From Blastocatellia bacterium (GTDB taxonomy: Bacteria > Acidobacteriota > Blastocatellia > UBA7656), in NCBI GenBank assembly GCA_963765495.1, contig CAVXWP010000007.1, positions 448,001 through 512,000 of the forward strand: a stretch of 64,000 nucleotides of DNA, in the 5' to 3' direction. The notes beneath the pieces are model-generated. The model did no database searches and was not told the origin of the DNA. It saw only the letters and a list, made by a program, of their open reading frames with translations. The translations under genes were made by a program, and so were the position numbers. This document shows positions 28,180 through 49,827 of the stretch, piece by piece (the first letter of the stretch is position 1; every line of letters starts with the position of its first letter).

Positions 28180-31011
28180 ATGAAGCGTTGCCCTATCTGT
28201 AAAAACGATTATGATGATGCCGTTGCATTCTGCGAAATTGATGGCCACGCGCTTGCAAATCTCTCTGATGCTGAAGCAGAAAAGGCTTCGGCGGCTACTA
28301 CCCCTCTTTCGGGTCTCATCAACACCCAGGCACCGTTTGAGCCTGAGCGCGCCGTGTGGCTTGCAATCTTGATCTGTGATGCAGTGGAAAGATTACATCA
28401 CAGCGGGAAGGTCATTGGCTCACTCTGCCCTCAAGATATTCTTGTTTCTACAGACGAGACAGGTAAGGAACGCCTGTATTTAGTCGCGCCAAAGGGTGGT
28501 GCTGACCAGTACGCACGGAATGAAAGAATGAGAGAGGCTGCCGATAATGTCTCTCCTGAGAGTGCTATGCGGGAAGCGTCCGGCACAGGCTACGCCTCTC
28601 CTGAAACGGCACAGAAAGATATAATTGATGTTCGGGCAGATGTTTATAGTATCGGCGCAATTCTCTATGAGATGCTCACAGGGCGAGCGCCGTTCAAAGC
28701 CTCTTCCCCGGCAGCGGTCGTAGTCAAACAGTTACTGGAAAACCCACGCCCTCTCCGAGATTTTCAGCCGGATATTCCTGAAAAGCTTCAAAGAGTCGTA
28801 CTTCGCGCTCTTGAAAAAGAGAAGGCCGACCGACAGCAATCCTGCGCTGAGTTCAGAAAAGATCTTGAGGCCGCCACCGCGAAATCTGATAGCGAGTACC
28901 CCGGGCTAGATAAAAACACACCTCTACAAATGAGTGCAATAGTAGAAATTGATCAGGCAAGTGATGCAGAAACCGAATATCGGGTTTGTCCGCTATGTTC
29001 GTATAAGAACGCTCCTGCTGATACTTTCTGTAAGAAATGTAGTACGCAATTAATTTCAGACCGACCGCTCGGAGAAACCAACTGCCCACGGTGCGGCTAC
29101 ACAAATCAACCCGATAGTCTGTTTTGTTTTGCCTGCGGTTCACAAATGACTATGACCAGAACCAGAGGTGAGGGAATGGTCTCCGCAGGACCGGGAGATG
29201 CGCCCGCGTCTGCGCCGAGCCCCGCTGTGCCTCGATCTGCACCTGCCCCCAGTATGCCGACGGGTGCTTTTTCTCCCGCCACTGCCAGTGCCGCCCCTCG
29301 CACGCTTAGAAAAGCCGTCTATGTGGTAATCTTTGGCGTTGCCATATTATCCGTCGCAGGCATTCTGGTTCTCCTGTTGTCTCGGTCGACCAGCATCAAC
29401 CCCTCTATTCCACCTCAACAGAGTAGCTCTAATTCGAATATTGGGATCAAGTCCAATTCAAATATTGGGACCGAACCTGAACCTGCTCCATCAGGGAGCG
29501 TGTCCAATTCAAATGTCGGGGCCGAGCCTGCTTCACCGAATGGGAGCGTCTCTATTGTCCTGCTTGTGACTCTTGTGGCGCTTGGCATGGGTGGTCTCGC
29601 AGTATTCTTCTGGCTTCTGCTCCGCCGAAGACCGCCTGTGCAGAAGAGCCGTCCGGTAATCGAAGGACGAGAGCAAGCGGTTCACCCCGAGCCGACTGCA
29701 ACTCTCCCCGCTCCGCATCCCGAGGTGCGTCTTCCTGCTCCGCCGCCCGAAGCTATGCCGGTAGAGCAACGCTTCCCCACGATGGTCAGCGAAAGCGTCT
29801 CGGCGCGAGCGGGGCAGGAAGACGCGGAGACCGTAAGGGTTCCTCAACCTCGACAAGCCCCTTCTCAAGAATCGATCAAGCGCTGCCCGTCCTGCGGGAC
29901 TGAGTTTCCTGTCAGCGCAAGGTTCTGTGTTCATGATGGAACGGCTCTCAAGGAAGAAGTCAAAACTATACCGGAAAAGAAAGGCCCGTCTTTTTACGAC
30001 CTGCAATCGGTGGAGATTAGAAAGCAGTGCCCAAAGTGCGGAGAGGACTATCCGCCAAACAAGAAGTTTTGCCGTTTTGACGGGCAACCGCTTATAGAGG
30101 TAAAGAAGCCACGCGAGAGCGACGAGCAACCGGACGAGATGGAGCCTATCGTCATTGGTCAGTACAGTTGTTTTGCCCGTCTGGGCGAAGGCGGCATGGG
30201 CGTAGTCTACAAAGCCCGTCATGTTCATCTGGATCGGCTCTCGGCAGTGAAGGTCTTACTGCCTCAAATGACCGCTCTATTGCCTGATGCCGTTCAGATG
30301 TTCCGGCGAGAGGCGCGGCTGGCCTCAAGTATAACTCACCCGAACATAGTTCTTATTTACGACTATGGCGAGTTGGATAAGAAATTGTTTTATCTTGCGA
30401 TGGAGTTCTTACTCGGAAAGAGCCTTGCAGAGATCATCGAACCACCGGGGCAGACATCTCGGCCGCTCCCCCTGCAACGGACGGTCGATATTACGCGGCA
30501 AATTTGCGAAGCTCTCGACGCGGCGCATCAGACAGGCATAGTACACCGCGATCTCAAACCGCAGAATGTTATGATCTGCAAGAAGTCAAACGGAGCAGAC
30601 CTGGTAAAGGTGGTCGATTTCGGCATTGCTCGCTCGTTGAGAGGCTACTCAGACTATCAAACTACCCCGGGGGCCATTATCGGAACACCTGCCTATATGT
30701 CGCCTGAACAGGCAACCGGATTGCCTGATATTGATGCGCGTTCCGATATATATAGCCTGGGATTGATGGTCTACGAGATGCTGTGCGGCAGGCCGCCATT
30801 TCAATCAGGAAAGTTGACGCCGATGCAGCAGGCGATTCGGCGCGCTCAGATGACAGCCCCCCCGGCTCCGTTAAGCAGCAGCCATCCTGAGTTGCGTATT
30901 CCAGCCGAAATAGATCAGGTGTTGATGCACGCGCTTGAACCGAATCGCAACCGGCGCACTCAGTCAATCAATCAGTTTATATATGAGATGGAAAAGGCGA
31001 CAAATTACTAA
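28180..31011 (+). CDS. two-kinase-domain membrane protein with multiple zinc ribbons (N-terminal degenerate kinase, C-terminal intact Ser/Thr kinase)
   Basis: CPIC, CPLC..CKKC, CPRC..CFAC, CPSC and CPKC ribbons; two TM helices; C-terminal LGEGGMG, HRDLKPQN, DFG, YMSPE; the N-terminal domain keeps YASPE and DVYSIG but lacks HRD and DFG. Confidence 0.88.
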   Translation: MKRCPICKNDYDDAVAFCEIDGHALANLSDAEAEKASAATTPLSGLINTQAPFEPERAVWLAILICDAVERLHHSGKVIGSLCPQDILVSTDETGKERLYLVAPKGGADQYARNERMREAADNVSPESAMREASGTGYASPETAQKDIIDVRADVYSIGAILYEMLTGRAPFKASSPAAVVVKQLLENPRPLRDFQPDIPEKLQRVVLRALEKEKADRQQSCAEFRKDLEAATAKSDSEYPGLDKNTPLQMSAIVEIDQASDAETEYRVCPLCSYKNAPADTFCKKCSTQLISDRPLGETNCPRCGYTNQPDSLFCFACGSQMTMTRTRGEGMVSAGPGDAPASAPSPAVPRSAPAPSMPTGAFSPATASAAPRTLRKAVYVVIFGVAILSVAGILVLLLSRSTSINPSIPPQQSSSNSNIGIKSNSNIGTEPEPAPSGSVSNSNVGAEPASPNGSVSIVLLVTLVALGMGGLAVFFWLLLRRRPPVQKSRPVIEGREQAVHPEPTATLPAPHPEVRLPAPPPEAMPVEQRFPTMVSESVSARAGQEDAETVRVPQPRQAPSQESIKRCPSCGTEFPVSARFCVHDGTALKEEVKTIPEKKGPSFYDLQSVEIRKQCPKCGEDYPPNKKFCRFDGQPLIEVKKPRESDEQPDEMEPIVIGQYSCFARLGEGGMGVVYKARHVHLDRLSAVKVLLPQMTALLPDAVQMFRREARLASSITHPNIVLIYDYGELDKKLFYLAMEFLLGKSLAEIIEPPGQTSRPLPLQRTVDITRQICEALDAAHQTGIVHRDLKPQNVMICKKSNGADLVKVVDFGIARSLRGYSDYQTTPGAIIGTPAYMSPEQATGLPDIDARSDIYSLGLMVYEMLCGRPPFQSGKLTPMQQAIRRAQMTAPPAPLSSSHPELRIPAEIDQVLMHALEPNRNRRTQSINQFIYEMEKATNY

Positions 31012-31261: not shown

Positions 31262-31270
31262 TGGTATAAT
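31262..31270 (+). promoter_or_regulatory. extended -10 promoter, probable leaderless start
   Basis: TG-G-TATAAT followed by 7 nt then ATG at 31278. Confidence 0.6.
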
Positions 31271-31277
31271 GGGGGCG

Positions 31278-32408
31278 ATGACCTGGGCCTACATAATCAA
31301 CTCATCGGATCGAAGATCGTTCAAACGTTGCCGGCGCGCCTGGGATCTGGGCGCTCACTCAAGACAGAACTACGAGCCGGTCACGCCCGTCGAGGTGTTT
31401 GATTTCAACCGGGCCATCTGCGACGCGCTGGCCGTCTATTACTTCCCCGGCATGTGGGAATGGAACCGGGAGATTGTTCTGCCTCTGACGATTGAAGGCT
31501 TTCTAAAGTCTATGCAAAAGCAGCTAGACCGCTACCTGCAACAGCAGACGTTGTCAAAGGAAGAGGAGCGGGATTGGAATGATCATCTCGAACTTGGCGA
31601 ATTGATGCTCAGGCGGTATTTTGAATGGGCCGCCACGATGGATAGTTTTTCCCCGATTCGGGTCGAAAGCCAGTTCGAAGTAAATATCCCCGATCCATTT
31701 CAGCCGGGCCGCGACCTCGCGTGGCGCGAAGGCGTGCCCATTCGTTATCGAGGGCGAATCCATCTGCTGGTCGTCGATGGGCACGATGCTTACTGGCTGG
31801 TTAAACATCAGGTCATTGATGAGCAGTGGAGTGATCTTGACGACCTGCTTCTTGATGAGCAAGGCATTTCATACTGCTGGGCGTGGGAGAACTTCTTTCT
31901 TGGAATGAAGATCGCGGGCACCATCTACAACGAACTGCGCAAGTCAGCTTTTCTGAGCGGCGGCACGATGTCGGGCGCCAGCCCAGTCGTCAACAGCCCG
32001 GTAGGCGGTGGTCAGGCAGAGCCGGTCGCTCAGCATCGCCGAATGTATGTGCAGACAGATCGCGAGCCGGATCAAAGGATCAAGCAGGAAGGAAATCAAC
32101 TCTTCCGGCGCACGCAAATCCCCAGGAGCCGAAAGGAACTCAAGAACTTCGGCAGGCAATTGGCGCTTGAGGCGCTCGACATGACAAACCCGGACCTGCG
32201 ACTTTATCCCAACCCTTCGAGAGAGAATTGCGGTGCTTGCGCTTATGTCAGACCCTGTATTGCGTTGAATGAAGGCGCGAGCGCAGGCCGTTTGCTTGAA
32301 GCCTACTATCGCAAGCGCGACGAAGAGAGCGAAGCAGGCCGGATCGGCGGGTCTACGTGGTCGGTTGATCGTGGAGCGATGCCTCCCGGTTGGGGAAGAA
32401 AATCATAA
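31278..32408 (+). CDS. PD-(D/E)XK (RecB/Cas4-like) fold protein with Fe-S Cys motif, catalytic residues degenerate
   Basis: SFKRCRRAW, GRIHLLVV..WLVKHQ, QGISY, NCGACAYVRPC. Confidence 0.7.
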   Translation: MTWAYIINSSDRRSFKRCRRAWDLGAHSRQNYEPVTPVEVFDFNRAICDALAVYYFPGMWEWNREIVLPLTIEGFLKSMQKQLDRYLQQQTLSKEEERDWNDHLELGELMLRRYFEWAATMDSFSPIRVESQFEVNIPDPFQPGRDLAWREGVPIRYRGRIHLLVVDGHDAYWLVKHQVIDEQWSDLDDLLLDEQGISYCWAWENFFLGMKIAGTIYNELRKSAFLSGGTMSGASPVVNSPVGGGQAEPVAQHRRMYVQTDREPDQRIKQEGNQLFRRTQIPRSRKELKNFGRQLALEALDMTNPDLRLYPNPSRENCGACAYVRPCIALNEGASAGRLLEAYYRKRDEESEAGRIGGSTWSVDRGAMPPGWGRKS

Positions 32409-32560
32409 ACCGCAGACGTGACCTTCGGGGCATATGGATGGTAAGAGTTGAATTTTTTAGACAGGATTAACAAGATTTTTCCTGTCTAATCCTTTCTGGC
32501 TCTGGCTTTCTGTTAAACTCGGACCGTAGAGTATTCCTTGACTCAGGGAGAACTGAGACG

Positions 32561-33583
32561 GTGGATGCAAATAATAACCTTCAGGGCAACGGCAAAGTAT
32601 ATCACTCTATCAAGGAGATAGATGTGCTCTGGATCACAGCGGGACTGGGTTGCGACGGTGATACCATAGCAATGACGGCGGCCACACAGCCGAGCATCGA
32701 AGATGTTGTGCTCGGGGCCATACCGGGAATTCCCAGAGTGAAGTTGCACAATCCCTTTCTCGCCTATGAAAACGGCGATGAGTTTATGGACTTTTTTTAT
32801 CGCGCCGAAGCCGGTGAGATAGATCCGTTTATCCTCGTAATCGAGGGCTCTATCCCCAATGAAACGAACAAAGCGGAAGGCTACTGGGCGGGCTTTGGCA
32901 CAGACAAACAGACGGGTCAGCCCATTCTGACGTGTGAATGGATAGACCGGCTGGCCCCAAAAGCCTGGGCCGTTGTGGCGGCTGGAACCTGCGCGACTTA
33001 TGGCGGCATCCATGCGATGCAGGGTAATCCTACGGGTTGTATGGGGCTTGCAGATTATCTCGGCTGGGCGTGGAAATCGAATGCAGAGATTCCCATTGTG
33101 TGTGTGCCGGGGTGCCCGGTGCTTCCCGACAATTTTATGGAGACGCTGCTTTACCTGCTCTATCAAGTGGCGGGGCTCGCGCCGATGATCCCGCTCGATG
33201 AGTCTCTCCGCCCCGTATGGCTTTTTGAACAGACGCTGCACGAAGGATGTGATCGCGGCGGTTATTACGAGCAGGCCGAATTTGCCGAAGAGTACGGCGG
33301 GCGTCAGTGTATTGTGAAACTCGGATGCTGGGGGCCTGTCGTACAATGCAACGTAGGCAAACGGAGCTGGATGGCCGGTGTCGGAGGTTGCCCGAACGTA
33401 GGCGGCATCTGCATAGGCTGCACGATGCCTGGCTTCCCCGACAAGTTCATGCCGTTTATGGATCAGCCTCCCGGATCGCTTCTGTCATCAGCCGCCGTGA
33501 TGACCTATGGCAAGGCCATTCACGCGTTGCGCAGGTTTACTCAGGCATCGCTGAACAAGGAACCGGATTGGCGGCGACGCTGA
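32561..33583 (+). CDS. [NiFe]-hydrogenase small subunit paralog (group 1h-like), no adjacent large subunit
   Basis: WITAGLGCDGDT, GTCATYGGI, PGCPV, HEGCDR, CIVKLGCWGP, CPNVGGICIGCT; strongly similar to 36847-37911; no Tat signal. Confidence 0.92.
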   Translation: MDANNNLQGNGKVYHSIKEIDVLWITAGLGCDGDTIAMTAATQPSIEDVVLGAIPGIPRVKLHNPFLAYENGDEFMDFFYRAEAGEIDPFILVIEGSIPNETNKAEGYWAGFGTDKQTGQPILTCEWIDRLAPKAWAVVAAGTCATYGGIHAMQGNPTGCMGLADYLGWAWKSNAEIPIVCVPGCPVLPDNFMETLLYLLYQVAGLAPMIPLDESLRPVWLFEQTLHEGCDRGGYYEQAEFAEEYGGRQCIVKLGCWGPVVQCNVGKRSWMAGVGGCPNVGGICIGCTMPGFPDKFMPFMDQPPGSLLSSAAVMTYGKAIHALRRFTQASLNKEPDWRRR

Positions 33584-33631
33584 TCCGACTGCTCACGAAA
33601 GCCTGTTCGACAGCCGGGTCATATCGAAGAG

Positions 33632-35569
33632 ATGATGAAGACGCAATCACAAAGTGGAGCTAACAGCGCCTATGCAGGCAATCGTAAGGGGGCGGCCTTT
33701 GAAGAGCCTCAAGCGGTGAGTCTGCCCGATGCGGAGAACATACTGAACGAGCTTGCCAGCGTCTTCTTTCCTGTTGATTCGCCGATTCAGACATCGGCAA
33801 GCGGAGCCATCGAGAAGCGGAGGCGGGCTACGATACAGGCAGCCGAACTGCCGAATGCCGTGGCTCGATATCGAACTCTCGTCGAGCAAATCCCCGCCGT
33901 TGTCTTCATGGCTTTTCTTGATAAAGGCATCGGCGAAGCCTACGTCAGCCCGCAGATCGAAGCGATGCTCGGCTTCTCTCAGGAAGAGTGGCTAAACGAC
34001 CCCGTGCGCTGGTATCGACATATCCACCCCGATGACAAAGCGCGCTGGAGCAACGAGGCGGCGCAGATGTTTTTGACCGGCGAGTCGTTGCGCTCCGTCT
34101 ACCGAGTGATCGCCCGCGACGGGCACGTCGTATGGTTTCACTGCGAAGCAAAGATGGTGAGGCGCGATGATGGCCGTCCCTGGTTTATCCACGGAGTCGG
34201 GTTTGACATTACCGAACTGAAACAGGCCGAGGCAGCGCTGAAAGAGGCGCACGACGAATTGGAAGTGCGCGTGCGGCAACGAACGGCCGAACTCGAAACC
34301 GCCAACCGCGAATTGCAAATGGAGATTGCCGAGCGCGAACGCGCCGAATCCGAGTTGCGGCAGGCGCACGATGAACTGGAAGATCACGTCCAGATGCGCA
34401 CAGCCCAGTTGGCGGAAGCGAACGAAGAGTTGCTTGTGGAAATCGGCGAGCGCCGCCGCGTCGAAGACGCCCTCCGCAAAAGCGAGGGCATGTTGCGCGG
34501 CCTCTTTGAGTATGCTCCCGATACTATGGTGCTCGTAGATAGCAGCGGGCACATTACGCGGATAAACGCGCAGGTGGAAGCTATGTTTGGGTACAGGCAG
34601 ATGGAGTTGCTCAATCAGCCGATTGAGTGCTTGTTGCCCGAACGCTTCAGGCAGGGGCATATAAAGCACCGCGCCGATTATAATATCGAGCCGCATATTC
34701 GCACCATGGGCGCAGGGCTTGAGTTATCCGGCAGGCGCAGGGACGGCAGCGAGTTTCCCGTAGAAATCATGTTGAGCCCGATAGAGACCAGAGACGGTCG
34801 TCAGGTGATAGCCGTAGTGCGCGACACCACCCGGCGCAAGCGCGCCGAAGCGGCGCAGCGCGAATATGCCGAGCGCCTGCAAATACTCTCTCGTCGCCTG
34901 ATGGAGGTTCAGGAGGTTGAACGCCGCAACATCGCGCGCGAATTGCACGACGAAATCGGGCAGGTGCTGACCGGCCTCAAACTCAGCCTTGAGATGTGTT
35001 CGCGGCTGCCGGCAGACCAGATGGGCGCGAGCCTCAATCAGGCGCAGATGCTCGTCAACGACCTGATGGCGCGGGCGCGCAAGCTATCGCTCGATTTGCG
35101 CCCGGGCATGCTCGACGATCTTGGCCTGTTGCCGACATTGCTATGGCATATCGAACACTATACGGCGCAAACCCGCGTTCAGGTGATCTTCAAGCATAGC
35201 GGCATTGAAGGGCGGAGATTTGCGCCGGAAGTCGAGACCGCGGCCTATCGCATCGCTCAGGAGGCGCTTACGAATGTCGCGCGACACGCGGGCGTAAATC
35301 AGGCCACACTGCGAGTCTGGGCATACCATCAAACGCTCAACCTGCAGATCGAAGATTATGGAAACGGCTTCAATTCCGATGCGGTTGTCGCCGCAAGCGA
35401 CACCAGCGGAGTGGCGGGAATGCGCGAACGCACCATGCTGCTCGGCGGGCAACTGACTATTGAGTCGCAACCCGGATTCGGCACCAGTCTGACTGCGGAA
35501 CTGAGAATAGACGACGAGCCTGACGCGCAGTCGGAAGCGGAGAGCTTGCCGACTGCTAAAGAGGATTAG
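33632..35569 (+). CDS. cytoplasmic PAS-PAS sensor histidine kinase (HisKA_3/NarX type)
   Basis: Two PAS/PAC domains (IHPDD; RRRDGSEFPVEI), coiled coils, ERRNIARELHDEIGQ, QEALTNVARHA. Confidence 0.93.
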   Translation: MMKTQSQSGANSAYAGNRKGAAFEEPQAVSLPDAENILNELASVFFPVDSPIQTSASGAIEKRRRATIQAAELPNAVARYRTLVEQIPAVVFMAFLDKGIGEAYVSPQIEAMLGFSQEEWLNDPVRWYRHIHPDDKARWSNEAAQMFLTGESLRSVYRVIARDGHVVWFHCEAKMVRRDDGRPWFIHGVGFDITELKQAEAALKEAHDELEVRVRQRTAELETANRELQMEIAERERAESELRQAHDELEDHVQMRTAQLAEANEELLVEIGERRRVEDALRKSEGMLRGLFEYAPDTMVLVDSSGHITRINAQVEAMFGYRQMELLNQPIECLLPERFRQGHIKHRADYNIEPHIRTMGAGLELSGRRRDGSEFPVEIMLSPIETRDGRQVIAVVRDTTRRKRAEAAQREYAERLQILSRRLMEVQEVERRNIARELHDEIGQVLTGLKLSLEMCSRLPADQMGASLNQAQMLVNDLMARARKLSLDLRPGMLDDLGLLPTLLWHIEHYTAQTRVQVIFKHSGIEGRRFAPEVETAAYRIAQEALTNVARHAGVNQATLRVWAYHQTLNLQIEDYGNGFNSDAVVAASDTSGVAGMRERTMLLGGQLTIESQPGFGTSLTAELRIDDEPDAQSEAESLPTAKED

Positions 35570-35572
35570 CCG

Positions 35573-36229
35573 ATGAATACGCTCACCATCGTGCTTGCCG
35601 ACGATCACAATGTCGTGCGACAGGGTCTGCGGGCATTGCTTGAGGCGGAGACGGATTTCAACGTGGTAGGCGAGGCCTGCGACGGTCTGGAAGCCCTGCA
35701 ACTGGTCGAACAATTAAGGCCGAATGTGCTGGTGCTTGATGTGATGATGCCCGGACTCAACGGCCTGGAGGTTTCTCGACAGCTTAACAAGCTCTCGCCG
35801 CAAACGCACATCGTCGTCCTGTCAATGTATTCCAACGAGGCATACGTCCTTGAGGCATTGGGCAACGGCGCATCGGCCTATGTCCTCAAGGATTCCAGTT
35901 CGGCTGATCTCGTGCATGCCGTACGCGAGGTTGCAGCGGGCCGGCGCTATCTGAGCCCGCCGCTTTCCGACCGCGCCATCGAGGCGTACCAGGAGAAGGC
36001 CAGGGCCGTCGTGCTCGACAAGTATGAAACCTTGACCACCCGCGAGCGCGAAGTGCTGCAACTGTCAGCCGAAGGGCATACCAGCACCGAGATTGCCGCG
36101 CGGCTTGGCATCAGTTCACGCACGGCCGAGACGCACCGCTCCAACCTTATGCATAAACTCGGTCTGCACACGCATGCCGACCTCATTCGGTATGCCCTGC
36201 GACGCGGCATCATCCCGATGGATAATTGA
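35573..36229 (+). CDS. NarL/FixJ family response regulator
   Basis: LADDH, LDVMMP, YVLK, LTTREREVL LuxR HTH. Confidence 0.95.
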   Translation: MNTLTIVLADDHNVVRQGLRALLEAETDFNVVGEACDGLEALQLVEQLRPNVLVLDVMMPGLNGLEVSRQLNKLSPQTHIVVLSMYSNEAYVLEALGNGASAYVLKDSSSADLVHAVREVAAGRRYLSPPLSDRAIEAYQEKARAVVLDKYETLTTREREVLQLSAEGHTSTEIAARLGISSRTAETHRSNLMHKLGLHTHADLIRYALRRGIIPMDN

Positions 36230-36278
36230 ACGCCGTTCGCGCGCCTTCAGGCTCCATTTTCCCTCCAATCCTGAAAAA

Positions 36279-36316
36279 TACGTAATAGTTTCGCTCTAAT
36301 TACGTAGGTTTACGAA
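36279..36316. promoter_or_regulatory. candidate NarL/LuxR-type operator (TACGTA boxes)
   Basis: TACGTAAT..ATTACGTA inverted repeat and TACGTA-N4-TACGAA upstream of the hhySL operon. Confidence 0.45.
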
Positions 36317-36846
36317 TAGACAGTCGGATAGCAGCGCGATATGATCAGCCCGTATTCGACGGCTCTAGTTTCTCCAAACTGCTAGAGACACTCTGGGGGG
36401 GGTGTCTCTAGCTGACTATCCGCAGCCAACGCTTATACATGCATGGATTGGGACTCATATTTGACCTTGAAATCACTCGGTGTTAAGATGGTGTCACATT
36501 GGATGGACGCATGTGGTAATGAAGCTGGTCTGATATACATGTGCTCATTCAAACAACTGGCGCGACAGGCGCTCCAATCAAAAATTCATTTACGGCATAT
36601 CACAAGAGCTTACTCCCTTCATCAGACGCTTTTTCTTATGAGCGATCATTTGCAACCTCACCGTTGCGCCGTACCAGTATTTGTTGATCATAAGGACCGG
36701 CGCGCTCGAGGCAATCGCGCTTCGAGACAAACCGGCTCACCGAGTTGCAAGAGTCATGGCTGATGCTAGCGCCCTCTTGCGAAAGCAACCGCGGGCCCAC
36801 CAACATCAACCGGCGACATCCATAATGATAGAAAGGAGGGACTACC

Positions 36847-37911
36847 GTGGCACAAGAAACGGTTCCATACGGGAGAAAAACCCAACACGCGCCCGCGGTA
36901 AAAGAAGTGCATATTGTCTGGATAACGGCAGGACTCAGTTGTGATGGTGATTCCGTGTCAATCACCGCAGCCACCCAGCCCAGCATCGAAGAAGTCGTAC
37001 TGGGAGCGATACCGGGACTGCCAAAGGTGCATCTGCACAACCCCGTACTTGCCTACGAAGTCGGCGATGATTTCATGCAGTATTGGTACAAGGCGGAGAA
37101 GGGCGAACTTGATCCTTTTGTACTGGTGGTTGAAGGCTCGATTCCAAACGAGAGGATTAAGAGCGAAGGTTACTGGGCGGCGATGGGCACAGACCCCGCG
37201 ACCGGACAGCCTATCACGACCAATGAGTGGATTGATCGCCTCGCCCCGAAAGCGCTGGCTGTGATGGGTTGCGGGACCTGCGCCACCTACGGCGGAATCC
37301 ATGCCATGGCAGGCAACCCTACAGGTGCCATGGGGCTCGCGGATTATCTGGGATGGGATTGGAAATCGAAGGCCGGGCTGCCGATCATCAATGTTCCAGG
37401 CTGTCCCGTGCAGCCGGATAATTTCATGGAGACCGTGCTCTACCTGCTCTATCAAGCGGCGGGGCTCGCGCCGATGATCCCGCTCGATGACCAGTTGCGG
37501 CCCACCTGGCTGTTCGGCAAGACGGTGCACGAAGGCTGTGACCGCGCGGGCTATTACGAGCAGGGCGATTTCGCCACCGAATATGGATCGCCGAAATGTA
37601 TAGTGAAGCTCGGATGCTGGGGGCCCGTGGTCAATTGCAACGTTCCAAAACGCGGCTGGATGGCCGGCATTGGCGGCTGCCCAAACGTAGGCGGCATATG
37701 CATAGGCTGCACGATGCCCGGCTTCCCCGACAAGTTCATGCCCTTTATGGATGAGCCGCCCGGCGGCAAGCTCTCTTCATCGGCCGTAGGTCTTTACGGC
37801 AAGGCGATTACGGCGCTGCGCAGCATCACAAACTCGACCCTGAACAAAGAACCCAAATGGCGGCACACGCGTCCCGAACTCACGACCGGTTATCGGCCAA
37901 GGTCATACTAA
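36847..37911 (+). CDS. hhyS: group 1h [NiFe]-hydrogenase small subunit
   Basis: WITAGLSCDGDS and full Fe-S Cys set, no Tat signal, AGGAGG RBS, directly upstream of the large subunit. Confidence 0.93.
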   Translation: MAQETVPYGRKTQHAPAVKEVHIVWITAGLSCDGDSVSITAATQPSIEEVVLGAIPGLPKVHLHNPVLAYEVGDDFMQYWYKAEKGELDPFVLVVEGSIPNERIKSEGYWAAMGTDPATGQPITTNEWIDRLAPKALAVMGCGTCATYGGIHAMAGNPTGAMGLADYLGWDWKSKAGLPIINVPGCPVQPDNFMETVLYLLYQAAGLAPMIPLDDQLRPTWLFGKTVHEGCDRAGYYEQGDFATEYGSPKCIVKLGCWGPVVNCNVPKRGWMAGIGGCPNVGGICIGCTMPGFPDKFMPFMDEPPGGKLSSSAVGLYGKAITALRSITNSTLNKEPKWRHTRPELTTGYRPRSY

Positions 37912-37928: not shown

Positions 37929-39737
37929 ATGAGTGCTTCAACGAAACCGAAATCAAAGTCTCCGACTGCGGCGCAGAACCTGGTTGAGATGAATTGGGAC
38001 CCGATCACCCGCATCGTCGGCAGCCTCGGAATCTTCACCAAGATAGACTTTGAGAACAAACAGGTCGCGGAATGCTACAGCACCAGTTCGATCTTTCGCG
38101 GCTACAGCATCTTCATGAAGGGCAAAGACCCGCGTGATGCGCACTTTATCACGAGCCGCATCTGCGGCATCTGCGGCGATAATCACGCGGTATGCGCGAC
38201 CTATGCGCAGAACATGGCCTTTGGCGTCCGCCCGCCCGCGCTCGGCGAATGGATAACAAACCTCGGCGAAGCGGCCGAGTATATGTTCGATCACAATATT
38301 TTTCAGGACAATCTGGTAGGCGTTGATTTCTGCGAGCAGATGATTAAAGAGACCAACCCGAGCGTCTGGGACAAGGCTCAGAATACCTCCGCGCCGAATG
38401 CCGACAAACACGGTTACAAGAAGATCTCCGACATCATGACGGCGCTAAACCCGTTCACGGGCGAGTTCTATCGCGAGACCCTGCAAGTGAGCCGTTACAC
38501 GCGCGAGATGTTCTGTTTGATGGAAGGCCGCCACGTTCACCCCTCGACACTCTATCCGGGCGGCGTCGGCACCGTGCCTACCGTGCAACTCTTCACCGAT
38601 TACATGGTCAGGCTGATGCGCTATGTGGAGTTCATGAAGAAAGTCGTGCCGCTGCACGATGACCTCTTCGACTTCATGTACGAGGCGCTGCCGGGTTATG
38701 AAGAGGTGGGACGGCGGCGAATACTGCTCGGCTGCTGGGGATCGTGGAATGACCCAGATATATGCGATTACACTTACAAAAACATGTCCGAGTGGGGTAA
38801 AGGCATGTTTGTCACGCCGGGCATTGTCGTAGACGGCGAGCTTGTGACCACGGACCTTGTAAAGATCAACCTCGGCATACGCATACTGCTCGGCAGTTCC
38901 TACTATGACGACTGGGAGAATTCCGAAGTCTTTGTCCGCGAAGACCCGCTCGGCAATCCCGTAGACAAGAAGCATCCGTGGAACCAGACCACCATTCCTC
39001 GACCGCAAAAGCGCGACTTCGATGACAAGTACACCTGGGTCATGTCGCCGCGCTGGCTCGACGAGCGGACGGGCGATCATCTGGCGCTCGATACGGGCGG
39101 CGGGCCGATTGCGCGGCTCTGGGCGACTGCGCTTGCCGGGATCGTGGACATCGGCTACATAAAGGCCACGGGCCACAGCGTCAAGATATACCTGCCGAAG
39201 TCTGCGACCCTGCCCGAAGTCGAGTTCGAGTGGAAGATTCCGCAATGGTCGAACGCCATCGAACGCGACCGCGCGCGGACATACTTCCAGGCTTATGCAG
39301 CGGCAGCCGCGCTTCATTTCATCGAGAAAGCGATGGCCGAACTCCACGCCGGAAGGACAAAGACGTGGTCTGATTTCAAGGTGCCGGATGAGGCGATTGG
39401 CTGCGGTTTCCACGAAGCGGTTCGCGGGGTGCTCTCGCATCACGTAGTCATCCGCGACGGCAAGATTGCCAACTATCATCCATATCCGCCTACGCCCTGG
39501 AACGCCAACCCGCGTGATATCTACGGCACGCCCGGCCCGTATGAAGACGCGGTGCAGAACACGCCGATCTTCGAAGAGAATGGGCCTGACAAATTCAAGG
39601 GCATAGACATCATGCGCGCCGTTCGCAGCTTTGATCCCTGTCTGCCCTGCGGCGTGCACATGTATCTGGGCAACGGCAAGGTGCTCGAAGAGCGTCATTC
39701 GCCGATGTTCGGCGTGGTAGGAAATGAGAAGAAATGA
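37929..39737 (+). CDS. hhyL: group 1h [NiFe]-hydrogenase large subunit
   Basis: WDPITRIVGSL, L1 TSRICGICGDNH, L2 SFDPCLPCGVH plus C-terminal extension; AAGGAG RBS. Confidence 0.95.
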   Translation: MSASTKPKSKSPTAAQNLVEMNWDPITRIVGSLGIFTKIDFENKQVAECYSTSSIFRGYSIFMKGKDPRDAHFITSRICGICGDNHAVCATYAQNMAFGVRPPALGEWITNLGEAAEYMFDHNIFQDNLVGVDFCEQMIKETNPSVWDKAQNTSAPNADKHGYKKISDIMTALNPFTGEFYRETLQVSRYTREMFCLMEGRHVHPSTLYPGGVGTVPTVQLFTDYMVRLMRYVEFMKKVVPLHDDLFDFMYEALPGYEEVGRRRILLGCWGSWNDPDICDYTYKNMSEWGKGMFVTPGIVVDGELVTTDLVKINLGIRILLGSSYYDDWENSEVFVREDPLGNPVDKKHPWNQTTIPRPQKRDFDDKYTWVMSPRWLDERTGDHLALDTGGGPIARLWATALAGIVDIGYIKATGHSVKIYLPKSATLPEVEFEWKIPQWSNAIERDRARTYFQAYAAAAALHFIEKAMAELHAGRTKTWSDFKVPDEAIGCGFHEAVRGVLSHHVVIRDGKIANYHPYPPTPWNANPRDIYGTPGPYEDAVQNTPIFEENGPDKFKGIDIMRAVRSFDPCLPCGVHMYLGNGKVLEERHSPMFGVVGNEKK

Positions 39738-44833: not shown

Positions 44834-45403
44834 ATGAGCGCTAGTGAAACCGGCGCAGTAATCTATCGTGTGGACCCCAGGCGAAGTCGTTTTATCGTTC
44901 GCACCTTCGCCACAGGCATGTTGTCGGCCTTTGGGCATAACCCTACGTTAGCCATCCGCGATTTTACGGGTGAGGTGCAGTTCTCGCCCGAGCATCCCGA
45001 AGATGCTTCATTGCGTTTGCAGATCAAAGCCGACTCGCTTGAAGTCACCGACGAAGTAAGCGACAAAGATCGCCGGGAGATCGAGCGGCAGACGCGCGAA
45101 GATGTGCTTGAAGCCGCTCGTTATCCCGAGATCGTTTTTGAGAGTACGAAGGTTTCTGCGGAAAAGGTTATGGGGAGTCAGTACCGCGCACGTATCACCG
45201 GAAAGTTGACATTGCGCGGCATCACGCGCGATTGCGTGATCGACTCGCAGGTGATCGCCGGAGAAGATACCTTGCGCGCCAACGGAGAATTTCCCCTGCG
45301 CCAGAGCGATTTCAATATCAAGCCGGTCAGCGCCGTCGGCGGTACGATCAAGCTCAAAGACGAATTGAAGTTCTCATTTGATATTGTCGCTTATCGGCAG
45401 TGA
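44834..45403 (+). CDS. YceI family protein
   Basis: L.AARYPEIVFES, GKLTLRGITR, LRQSDFNIKP. Confidence 0.85.
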   Translation: MSASETGAVIYRVDPRRSRFIVRTFATGMLSAFGHNPTLAIRDFTGEVQFSPEHPEDASLRLQIKADSLEVTDEVSDKDRREIERQTREDVLEAARYPEIVFESTKVSAEKVMGSQYRARITGKLTLRGITRDCVIDSQVIAGEDTLRANGEFPLRQSDFNIKPVSAVGGTIKLKDELKFSFDIVAYRQ

Positions 45404-49137: not shown

Positions 49138-49827
49138 ATGGCAAAAACTATAGACGATTTCTCTCGCTCGTTTTACCCCTTCCTGCACGATGACGATAAG
49201 AAGCCGCAGGACTTGCAGGAAGAGTTGCGCTTCTCGTTGCTTGAGAAAGCCCGCGAGAGCGTCGAAGTCAAACAACGTTTCTTTCAAGAGAACGCCGATG
49301 CCATTCTCGAAGCGTCACTGGCGATGGCAAAGAGCTTTCAGCGCGGCGGCAAGCTGCTGGTTTGCGGCAACGGCGGCTCGGCCACCGACGCGCAGCACAT
49401 CGCCGTAGAGTTTATGCATCCGATCACGGTAGGCCGCAAGGCGCTGCCTGCAATATGCTTGACCAATGATATGGCGATGGTCACGGCGGTCTCAAACGAC
49501 GTAGGATTTGCCGATGTCTTCTCGCGGCAGGTCATCGCGCTCGGGCGTGAAGGCGACATCCTGCTGGGGATTTCGACCAGCGGCAATTCCGACAACCTGA
49601 TGCACGCCTTCGAGACGGCGCGAAAAATGAAGCTCGTCACCATAGGTTATGCCGGTGGCGACGGTGGCAGGATGGTCGAGCTGCACGCAGCCAGGCGGCT
49701 TGATTTCTGCCTGACGGTTCCGACATCGAGCATCCACCGGATACAGGAAAGCCACGTGACGCTTTATCATACGATGTGGGACATGGTGCACACTTATTTA
49801 GAGCATCGCTCGCTTGTCGAGGGCTGA
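49138..49827 (+). CDS. SIS-domain protein (GmhA/phosphoheptose isomerase-like) within hyp operon
   Basis: CGNGGSATDAQH, STSGNS, RIQESH. Confidence 0.88.
   Translation: MAKTIDDFSRSFYPFLHDDDKKPQDLQEELRFSLLEKARESVEVKQRFFQENADAILEASLAMAKSFQRGGKLLVCGNGGSATDAQHIAVEFMHPITVGRKALPAICLTNDMAMVTAVSNDVGFADVFSRQVIALGREGDILLGISTSGNSDNLMHAFETARKMKLVTIGYAGGDGGRMVELHAARRLDFCLTVPTSSIHRIQESHVTLYHTMWDMVHTYLEHRSLVEG

Follow-up and report, generated by a model that had tools for sequence, protein, structure and literature searches.

A kinase-coupled second small subunit of the group 1h hydrogenase in Acidobacteriota, probably the input of a switch for atmospheric hydrogen scavenging

Why would a bacterium carry a second iron-sulfur (Fe-S) small subunit of its hydrogenase and place it before a sensor kinase? 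The question is raised by a locus of a Blastocatellia bacterium (Acidobacteriota; assembly GCA_963765495.1), located in a 64,000-nucleotide stretch of contig CAVXWP010000007.1 (positions 448,001 to 512,000, forward strand). We refer to this whole stretch as the window, and coordinates follow its numbering. Upstream of hhyS and hhyL (hhySL), which encode the subunits of a group 1h nickel-iron (NiFe) hydrogenase, lies hhyS2, encoding a paralog of the small subunit HhyS. A specialised second copy of this Fe-S subunit beside one sensor-kinase domain is found in many soil Acidobacteria, and it is probably the input of a switch turning on the genes of the enzyme that scavenges hydrogen (H2) from air. 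The evidence comes from gene content, ligands, selection, phylogeny, linkage, a gene fusion and a DNA motif.

The first-pass annotation of this DNA described a full second small-subunit gene that retains the Fe-S ligands, lacks the C-terminal HTRPELTTGY tail, has no large subunit of its own, and shares its strand with a PAS-PAS-HisKA_3 kinase and a NarL-type regulator ahead of the hhySL-hyp operon. All of these features are present (Table 1). HhyS2 ends in ...EPDWRRR, and the gene after hhyS2 is the kinase, not hhyL. Gaps of 48 bp and 3 bp separate hhyS2 from the kinase gene and the kinase gene from the regulator gene, and 617 bp lie between the regulator gene and hhyS; accessory and hyp genes follow hhyL on the + strand. 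In the source genome (97.9% complete), hhyS2 and hhyS are the sole two small subunits. The kinase consists of PAS_3 (residues 103–189, referred to as PAS-A), PAS (287–398, PAS-B), HisKA_3 (430–492) and HATPase_c (535–626) domains. It is soluble, with no hydrophobic stretch above KD19 1.25. HoxA/HupR-type regulators are NtrC-type; the domain scan found no AAA+ domain in the regulator of the window, which is hence not of that type.

HhyS2 is 73% identical to HhyS of the same locus. Its best solved relative is HofK (PDB 5AA5), both by sequence (E 3e-176) and by fold, and sequence and tree place it within the group 1h small subunit (HhyS/HofK) lineage. We classed 154 small subunits by their next gene alone, leaving out fragments of fewer than 300 aligned residues and copies with internal stops: 78 precede a PAS-A protein, 73 precede hhyL, and 3 precede neither. 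A quick tree of 156 rows places the 78, together with the orphan copy of locus L067, on one side of a branch (Shimodaira-Hasegawa-like approximate likelihood ratio test 88). In a careful tree of 43 rows, which includes proteobacterial and actinobacterial HhyS, the 20 HhyS2 rows form one clade (100/100) across Blastocatellia and Terriglobia. This clade groups weakly (89/71) with HofK/Methylocystis and not with the neighbouring HhyS. The separate clade suggested for the paralog is recovered, and the outcome named as fatal to the idea, a recent lineage-specific duplicate without conserved linkage to two-component genes, is not what we see: the clade is old and its linkage to the kinase is conserved. 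The pairwise ratio of nonsynonymous to synonymous substitution rates (dN/dS) is 0.018–0.068 for HhyS2 (7 pairs) and 0.017–0.057 for HhyS (4 pairs). The hhyS2 module is real, old and strongly selected. Frameshifted hhyS2 copies were seen in genome G022 and locus L140.

The ligand set of HhyS2 comprises C31, D34, C144, C185, H227, C230, C250, C256, C263, C277, C284 and C287, which, by the assignment for 5AA5, would bind three Fe-S clusters and include the CxxD proximal motif. The 11 Cys/His ligands are retained in 77–78 of the 78 HhyS2 proteins; D34 is changed to Glu in 21 of them. Both termini differ from the catalytic subunit. The N-terminal PYGRxTQ arm is present in 0/78 HhyS2 versus 68/71 acidobacterial HhyS, and the C-terminal LTTGY tail, kept in 71/71 acidobacterial HhyS, is lost in 68 HhyS2 and leaves a remnant in 10/78. 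The C-terminus of HhyS2 in the window lies three residues past the last conserved Trp. At 17 positions, HhyS2 has a fixed residue that acidobacterial HhyS rarely shows. I91, C125, W136, G233, G266, Q302, L307, H321, F326 and S330 are also missing from six other catalytic subunits; S306, L308, T315 and R325 are each seen in one or two of these six, and A37, L196 and Q262 are not restricted to HhyS2. Confidence in the AlphaFold model of HhyS2 is confined to the N-terminal domain (predicted local distance difference test below 50 at residues 212–340). In this model, D21, I91, W136 and C181 would lie near strand starts of the flavodoxin-like sheet, at the edge opposite the proximal cluster. HofK, the small subunit of the actinobacterial-type (group 1h) enzyme of Cupriavidus necator, has the same ligand set as HhyS2. 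In contrast to the window HhyS2, it keeps the N-terminal arm and the LTTGY tail, lacks HhyS2 markers such as W136, S306/L307, F326 and S330, and is encoded immediately ahead of its large subunit; the annotation shows no two-component genes within 6 kb of it.

The partner that stays with hhyS2 is the N-terminal helix and PAS-A of the kinase. A GTDB scan with PAS-A alone confirmed at least 589 loci, and we examined the best 80 of these 589. Upstream DNA of at least 1.3 kb was available in 75, and hhyS2 is the preceding gene in 71 of the 75; it also precedes PAS-A in 2 of the 5 loci with shorter upstream DNA. Three of the four genomes without an upstream hhyS2 carry the gene elsewhere, and G430 does not. 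One draw of 401 Acidobacteriota genomes contains 21 with a 1h-like small subunit, 11 of these with hhyS2. PAS-A occurs in exactly these 11 (at least 254 bits, versus at most 132 elsewhere), the profile having been built partly from them, so that only the 390 absences are independent. It is missing from the 10 genomes with other 1h-like small subunits (two of which, G238 and the unpublished G062, were typed by identity alone, at 48–49%) and from the 380 with none. In G369, hhyS2 and the PAS-A kinase lie on separate contigs. Among 80 metagenome loci fetched with the fusion protein described below as query, which may favour linked loci, HhyS2-type genes with room for a following gene are followed by a PAS-A-type gene in 13/13 cases, and HhyS-type genes by hhyL in 46/46; the rest include 9 at contig edges and one ambiguous case.

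What stands behind PAS-A varies. The N-terminal helix and PAS-A are 62–84% identical across the 80 loci, versus 25–78% for the kinase core where alignable (67 loci). In 73 loci, the core is a distant HisKA_3 (37), a window-type HisKA_3 (24), a HisKA (10) or broken (2), and PAS-B is found in just 27. The outputs include two HisKA_3 subfamilies, HisKA with or without receivers, and HisKA_2. The last is found in an in-frame fusion of small subunit, helix, PAS and HisKA_2, known from two records (P0241 and P0281, from ENA and JGI) that are 90% identical with linker indels in frame. The PAS of the fusion is a more distant PAS-A relative (44% over the aligned stretch). We rejected P0268 as a fusion, since it is a frameshift artefact, and did not count P0253, a single partial record that scores nearer HhyS. 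The linkage between paralog and kinase put forward by the first-pass annotation therefore stands for the N-terminal helix and one PAS domain, and not for HisKA_3 and NarL as such. A complex prediction of HhyS2 with the N-terminal helix/PAS-A and three 4Fe-4S clusters scored 0.01 against a mark of 0.32 and is evidence neither way. A search of the ESM atlas with PAS-A returned generic PAS clusters.

Other arrangements of the module were noticed. A single hhyS2 accompanies two PAS-A kinases at L162:8891-14118 and L127:10001-16128, which suggests one HhyS2 input feeding several kinases. In a close relative (L090:1115-3830), a HisKA-receiver hybrid kinase replaces HisKA_3, next to a regulator 94% identical to that of the window and the same operator. 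In G166 and G369 (L065:12333-14369, L067:5170-7152), hhyS2 is relocated away from hhySL beside another gene, which from its sequence we presume to resemble copper amine oxidase.

Outside Acidobacteriota, a homolog search with the PAS-A profile was swamped by multi-PAS proteins, and the HhyS2 search yielded almost no organism names. Thirteen plasmid records from other phyla carry one small subunit each, which in the 5 regions examined lies directly before the large subunit. Locus L163, labelled Actinomycetota, was dropped as a sign of a wider range: the phylum draw of its genome gave acidobacterial genomes again.

Does HhyS2 borrow HhyL? In G037 (99% complete), G441 and G443, hhyL is fronted by unrelated DNA and HhyS2 is the sole small subunit found. 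The L1/L2 motifs of these HhyL are intact where visible; G441 and G443 carry the gene in pieces at contig ends. Two HhyS2/HhyS chimeras stand directly before hhyL. The one at L224:5905-7041 is intact and changes from HhyS2-type to HhyS-type at about residue 270; the other, at L031:370-1390, has an internal TAG. Loss of the kinase and regulator genes by recombination between the paralogs would leave such chimeras, and an assembly chimera is also possible. All 11 hhyS2 genomes of the 401 contain hhyL, and we found it in 13 of 16 genomes selected for an hhyS2 locus without visible hhyL. According to passages of PMC8027828, hhyS transcripts are undetectable in exponential phase while hhyL has a measurable baseline, so HhyL may then be free for HhyS2. 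Given a sensory role, these genomic hints lead us to favour the borrowing of HhyL slightly.

The first-pass annotation also pointed to TACGTA boxes ahead of hhySL. TACGTA alone occurs at chance level (5 in the window versus 4.4 expected) and was rejected as a stand-alone motif for want of enrichment, while the boxes at 36279 and 36301 fall within a larger conserved site. Its main part, TACGTAG-N2-(C/T)TACGAA at 36301–36316 (the putative operator A), has a half-site 22 bp upstream, adjoins a predicted -35 TAGACA and -10 TATGAT and is the best operator match in its own genome. Its 7-2-7 layout is typical of NarL-family operators. Allowing at most 3 mismatches, operator A is found in 24/24 loci with a regulator at least 60% identical to that of the window (1.2 in shuffles), in 0/5 loci with intermediate regulators and in 1/37 with a Terriglobia-type regulator; a different palindrome, TCGGGGAATCCCCGA, is found in 36 of these 37, both motifs being derived from the same sequences in which they were counted. 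Neither motif occurs in L147 and L029, whose regulators are swapped. The -35/-10 layout beside the operator is kept in 21 of the 24 loci. About 500 nt (36346–36846) separate the predicted -10 from the hhyS start, and the operator-to-start distance in relatives is 124–550 nt. The module has hhySL no more than 6 kb downstream in 59 of 73 loci, and 6 loci are too short to tell. An operator upstream of hhyS2 occurs in just 1/78 loci, so there is no sign of autoregulation.

In the best explanation of the whole, HhyS2 is a subunit dedicated to the input of a switch with three components, a proposal we consider about evenly balanced. HhyS2, with its HhyS-like Fe-S chain, probably docks on the N-terminal helix/PAS-A of the kinase through a new conserved surface. 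It would pair, by a narrow preference, with a share of matured HhyL to give a low-abundance HhyL-HhyS2 sensory hydrogenase, and the redox state of its clusters would be set by H2 oxidation versus drainage to the respiratory chain. From what is known of the kinase family, this redox state would tune how the kinase phosphorylates itself at H439 and passes the phosphate to D56 of the regulator. The regulator likely binds the 7-2-7 site beside the -35 and activates hhySL-hyp, a feedback loop that would be added to starvation control.

The extra gene is already in print, uncharacterised. An extra hhyS about 3,600 bp upstream of the structural genes is reported for Acidobacteriaceae bacterium KBS 83, Edaphobacter aggregans and Pyrinomonas methylaliphatogenes, and it is expressed in KBS 83 (PMC8027828). 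The spacing matches many loci here (3.6–4.9 kb). Judged from this spacing, hhyS2 and the extra hhyS very probably belong to the same gene family. The main text of PMC8027828, supplement SI-2 aside, gives no function for it and does not mention a kinase or regulation. This paper alone was returned for 'hhyS homolog' with hydrogenase, and none was returned for a two-component sensory system with Acidobacteria hydrogenase. We found no characterisation of the module in this literature, where SI-2 and Greening et al. 2015 (PNAS) might mention the kinase link. PMC5900883 shows gene clusters and, in the passages available, does not discuss the paralog; PMC13098282 leaves Hhy induction open and PMC10017518 cites 5AA5.

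The closest known parallel is the group 2b system HoxBC-HoxJ-HoxA of C. necator, as modelled in passages of PMC10073562, PMC6978683 and PMC5665086, in which a cytoplasmic hydrogenase subunit, a histidine kinase and a regulator control hydrogenase genes. In HydDB, group 1h falls under the respiratory enzymes, and the sensory NiFe groups are 2b and 2c (PMC5037454). As in group 2b, the histidine kinase is genetically linked to its small subunit, here by adjacency and by the fusion. For HoxBC-HoxJ-HoxA, a ternary sensing complex is established. Unlike HoxBC/HupUV, HhyS2 is of group 1h ancestry and has no large subunit of its own. HoxB needs a C-terminal extension of about 50 residues for the double dimer (PMC5665086), whereas HhyS2 has lost its tail. 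HoxA acts unphosphorylated, whereas the regulator here is NarL-type at a predicted sigma-70-like promoter. The module thus fails group 2b membership, yet probably works like it, built from group 1h parts.

Several observations weigh against the proposed switch. G430 has a PAS-A kinase and hhySL, and hhyS2 was not found in it; the positive PAS-A counts among the 401 genomes depend partly on their own profile. G436, a 5.2 Mb metagenome-assembled genome in nearly one contig, carries intact hhyS2 and kinase, and hhyL, hhyS, hypD and any other NiFe large subunit were not found in it, its completeness figure not being given; hhyL was not found in G438 and G446 either, both apparently fragmented. Among 225 columns invariant in acidobacterial HhyS, 59 are relaxed in HhyS2, many at residues 48–70, which is presumably a large-subunit contact region. 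The module is unlinked to hhySL in 8/73 loci. The matching of regulators to motifs amounts to 2 independent pairs on supported branches (p 0.5), and relatedness could explain it, since the motifs also come from the counted sequences. In E. aggregans, expression of the extra hhyS was not detected, and hhySL induction follows carbon starvation, H2 dependence not being tested in the passages concerned (PMC8027828).

HhyS2 might instead bind PAS-A without HhyL, as a stand-alone Fe-S redox/O2 sensor of electron or oxygen status. The G436 set, with a hybrid kinase and no hydrogenase or hypD found, would suit such a sensor, as would the relaxed residues 48–70, the N-terminal arm lost in all 78 proteins, the hybrid kinases fed by the module far from hhySL (L065, L074, L120), and starvation as the known induction. 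On the other hand, hhyL accompanies hhyS2 in 11/11 sampled genomes, three genomes have hhyL with HhyS2 as the sole small subunit found, and the whole three-cluster wire is conserved; G436 may reflect recent loss or be incomplete. On balance we consider the stand-alone sensor unlikely. The same three genomes (G037, G441, G443) would also fit a second catalytic small subunit, an isoform used under different conditions and sharing no more than a transcript with the regulators, and so would the retained ligands and the chimeras directly before hhyL. This improbable explanation does not account for why hhyS2 keeps strictly to one PAS domain while kinases are swapped, or for the fusion, and the arm and, mostly, the tail are lost from HhyS2, although they are kept in 68 and 71 of 71 acidobacterial catalytic HhyS.

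If binding of HhyL rather than redox switched the kinase, HhyS2 would report matured HhyL, that is, nickel or maturation status. The co-occurrence with hhyL and the hyp-adjacent placement in L094, L110, L114 and L213 agree with a reporter of this kind; the medial and distal clusters are strictly conserved, which points to electron transfer, and G436 has no hhyL that we could find, so we rate it very improbable. That HhyS2 is a recent or decaying duplicate without a role is largely refuted by the fully supported clade over two classes, dN/dS below 0.07 and its own fixed residues, despite the frameshifts in G022 and L140 and the expression not detected in E. aggregans.

Table 1. Position and strand of the module, its putative target and adjoining features in the window.
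Feature	Positions	Strand	Remarks
Cas4/PD-(D/E)XK-like 4-Cys protein, degenerate catalytic motif	31269..32408	+	not a conserved module part
hhyS2, kinase-coupled paralog of group 1h small subunit, 340 aa	32561..33583	+	PF01058 + PF14720
Soluble histidine kinase: N-helix, PAS-A, coiled coil, PAS-B, HisKA_3 (H439), HATPase_c	33632..35569	+	
N-terminal helix (AExxLxxLAxxF) + PAS-A, constant hhyS2 companion, presumed docking/input domain	33716..34234	+	
NarL/LuxR-type response regulator, receiver + GerE helix-turn-helix, D56, 218 aa	35573..36229	+	
Upstream half-site, 22 bp before main site	36275..36285	+	
7-2-7 inverted repeat TACGTAG-GT-TTACGAA, putative operator of regulator	36301..36316	+	genome's best match
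Predicted sigma-70-type hhySL promoter: -35 TAGACA, 17 nt, -10 TATGAT; abuts operator	36317..36345	+	
hhyS, canonical small subunit, putative target operon	36847..37911	+	
hhyL, group 1h large subunit, L1/L2 motifs intact, candidate borrowed partner	37929..39737	+	

The span of the first-pass annotation, which starts at 31262, includes the Cas4/PD-(D/E)XK-like open reading frame without mentioning it. Its four Cys are conserved, and 300 other sampled Acidobacteriota gave no match. Relatives lie beside group 1h loci in G006, L085, a Mycobacterium plasmid (39%; the sole plasmid match) and metagenome locus L241 (34%), and the protein is possibly a hydrogenase-associated Fe-S protein. Just upstream, 28180–31011 encodes a 943-residue protein with two Ser/Thr kinase domains, zinc ribbons and two hydrophobic segments, for which we saw no link to the hhyS2 module. 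Inside the hhy-hyp cluster, YceI-like (44834–45403) and SIS/GmhA-like (49138–49827) genes are kept in relatives.

Tentatively, at somewhat less than even strength, we read the module as a second independent origin of H2-sensing hydrogenases, in which a duplicate of the group 1h small subunit turns HhyL into a sensor by subunit exchange. With the same reserve, the signal may be relayed by a single PAS domain dedicated to it, which has been joined to three or more histidine-kinase families. If so, the sensor would be made from an enzyme active at atmospheric H2 levels. Genomes with hhyL and without hhyS would then hold a sensor-only group 1h hydrogenase, counted as uptake in hhyL-based surveys. 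If HhyL is shared, one large subunit would be catalyst or sensor according to its small subunit. For Acidobacteriota, cultured strains among them, the module supplies candidates for the input protein, the kinase domain, the regulator and the operator, and the question is therefore directly testable there.

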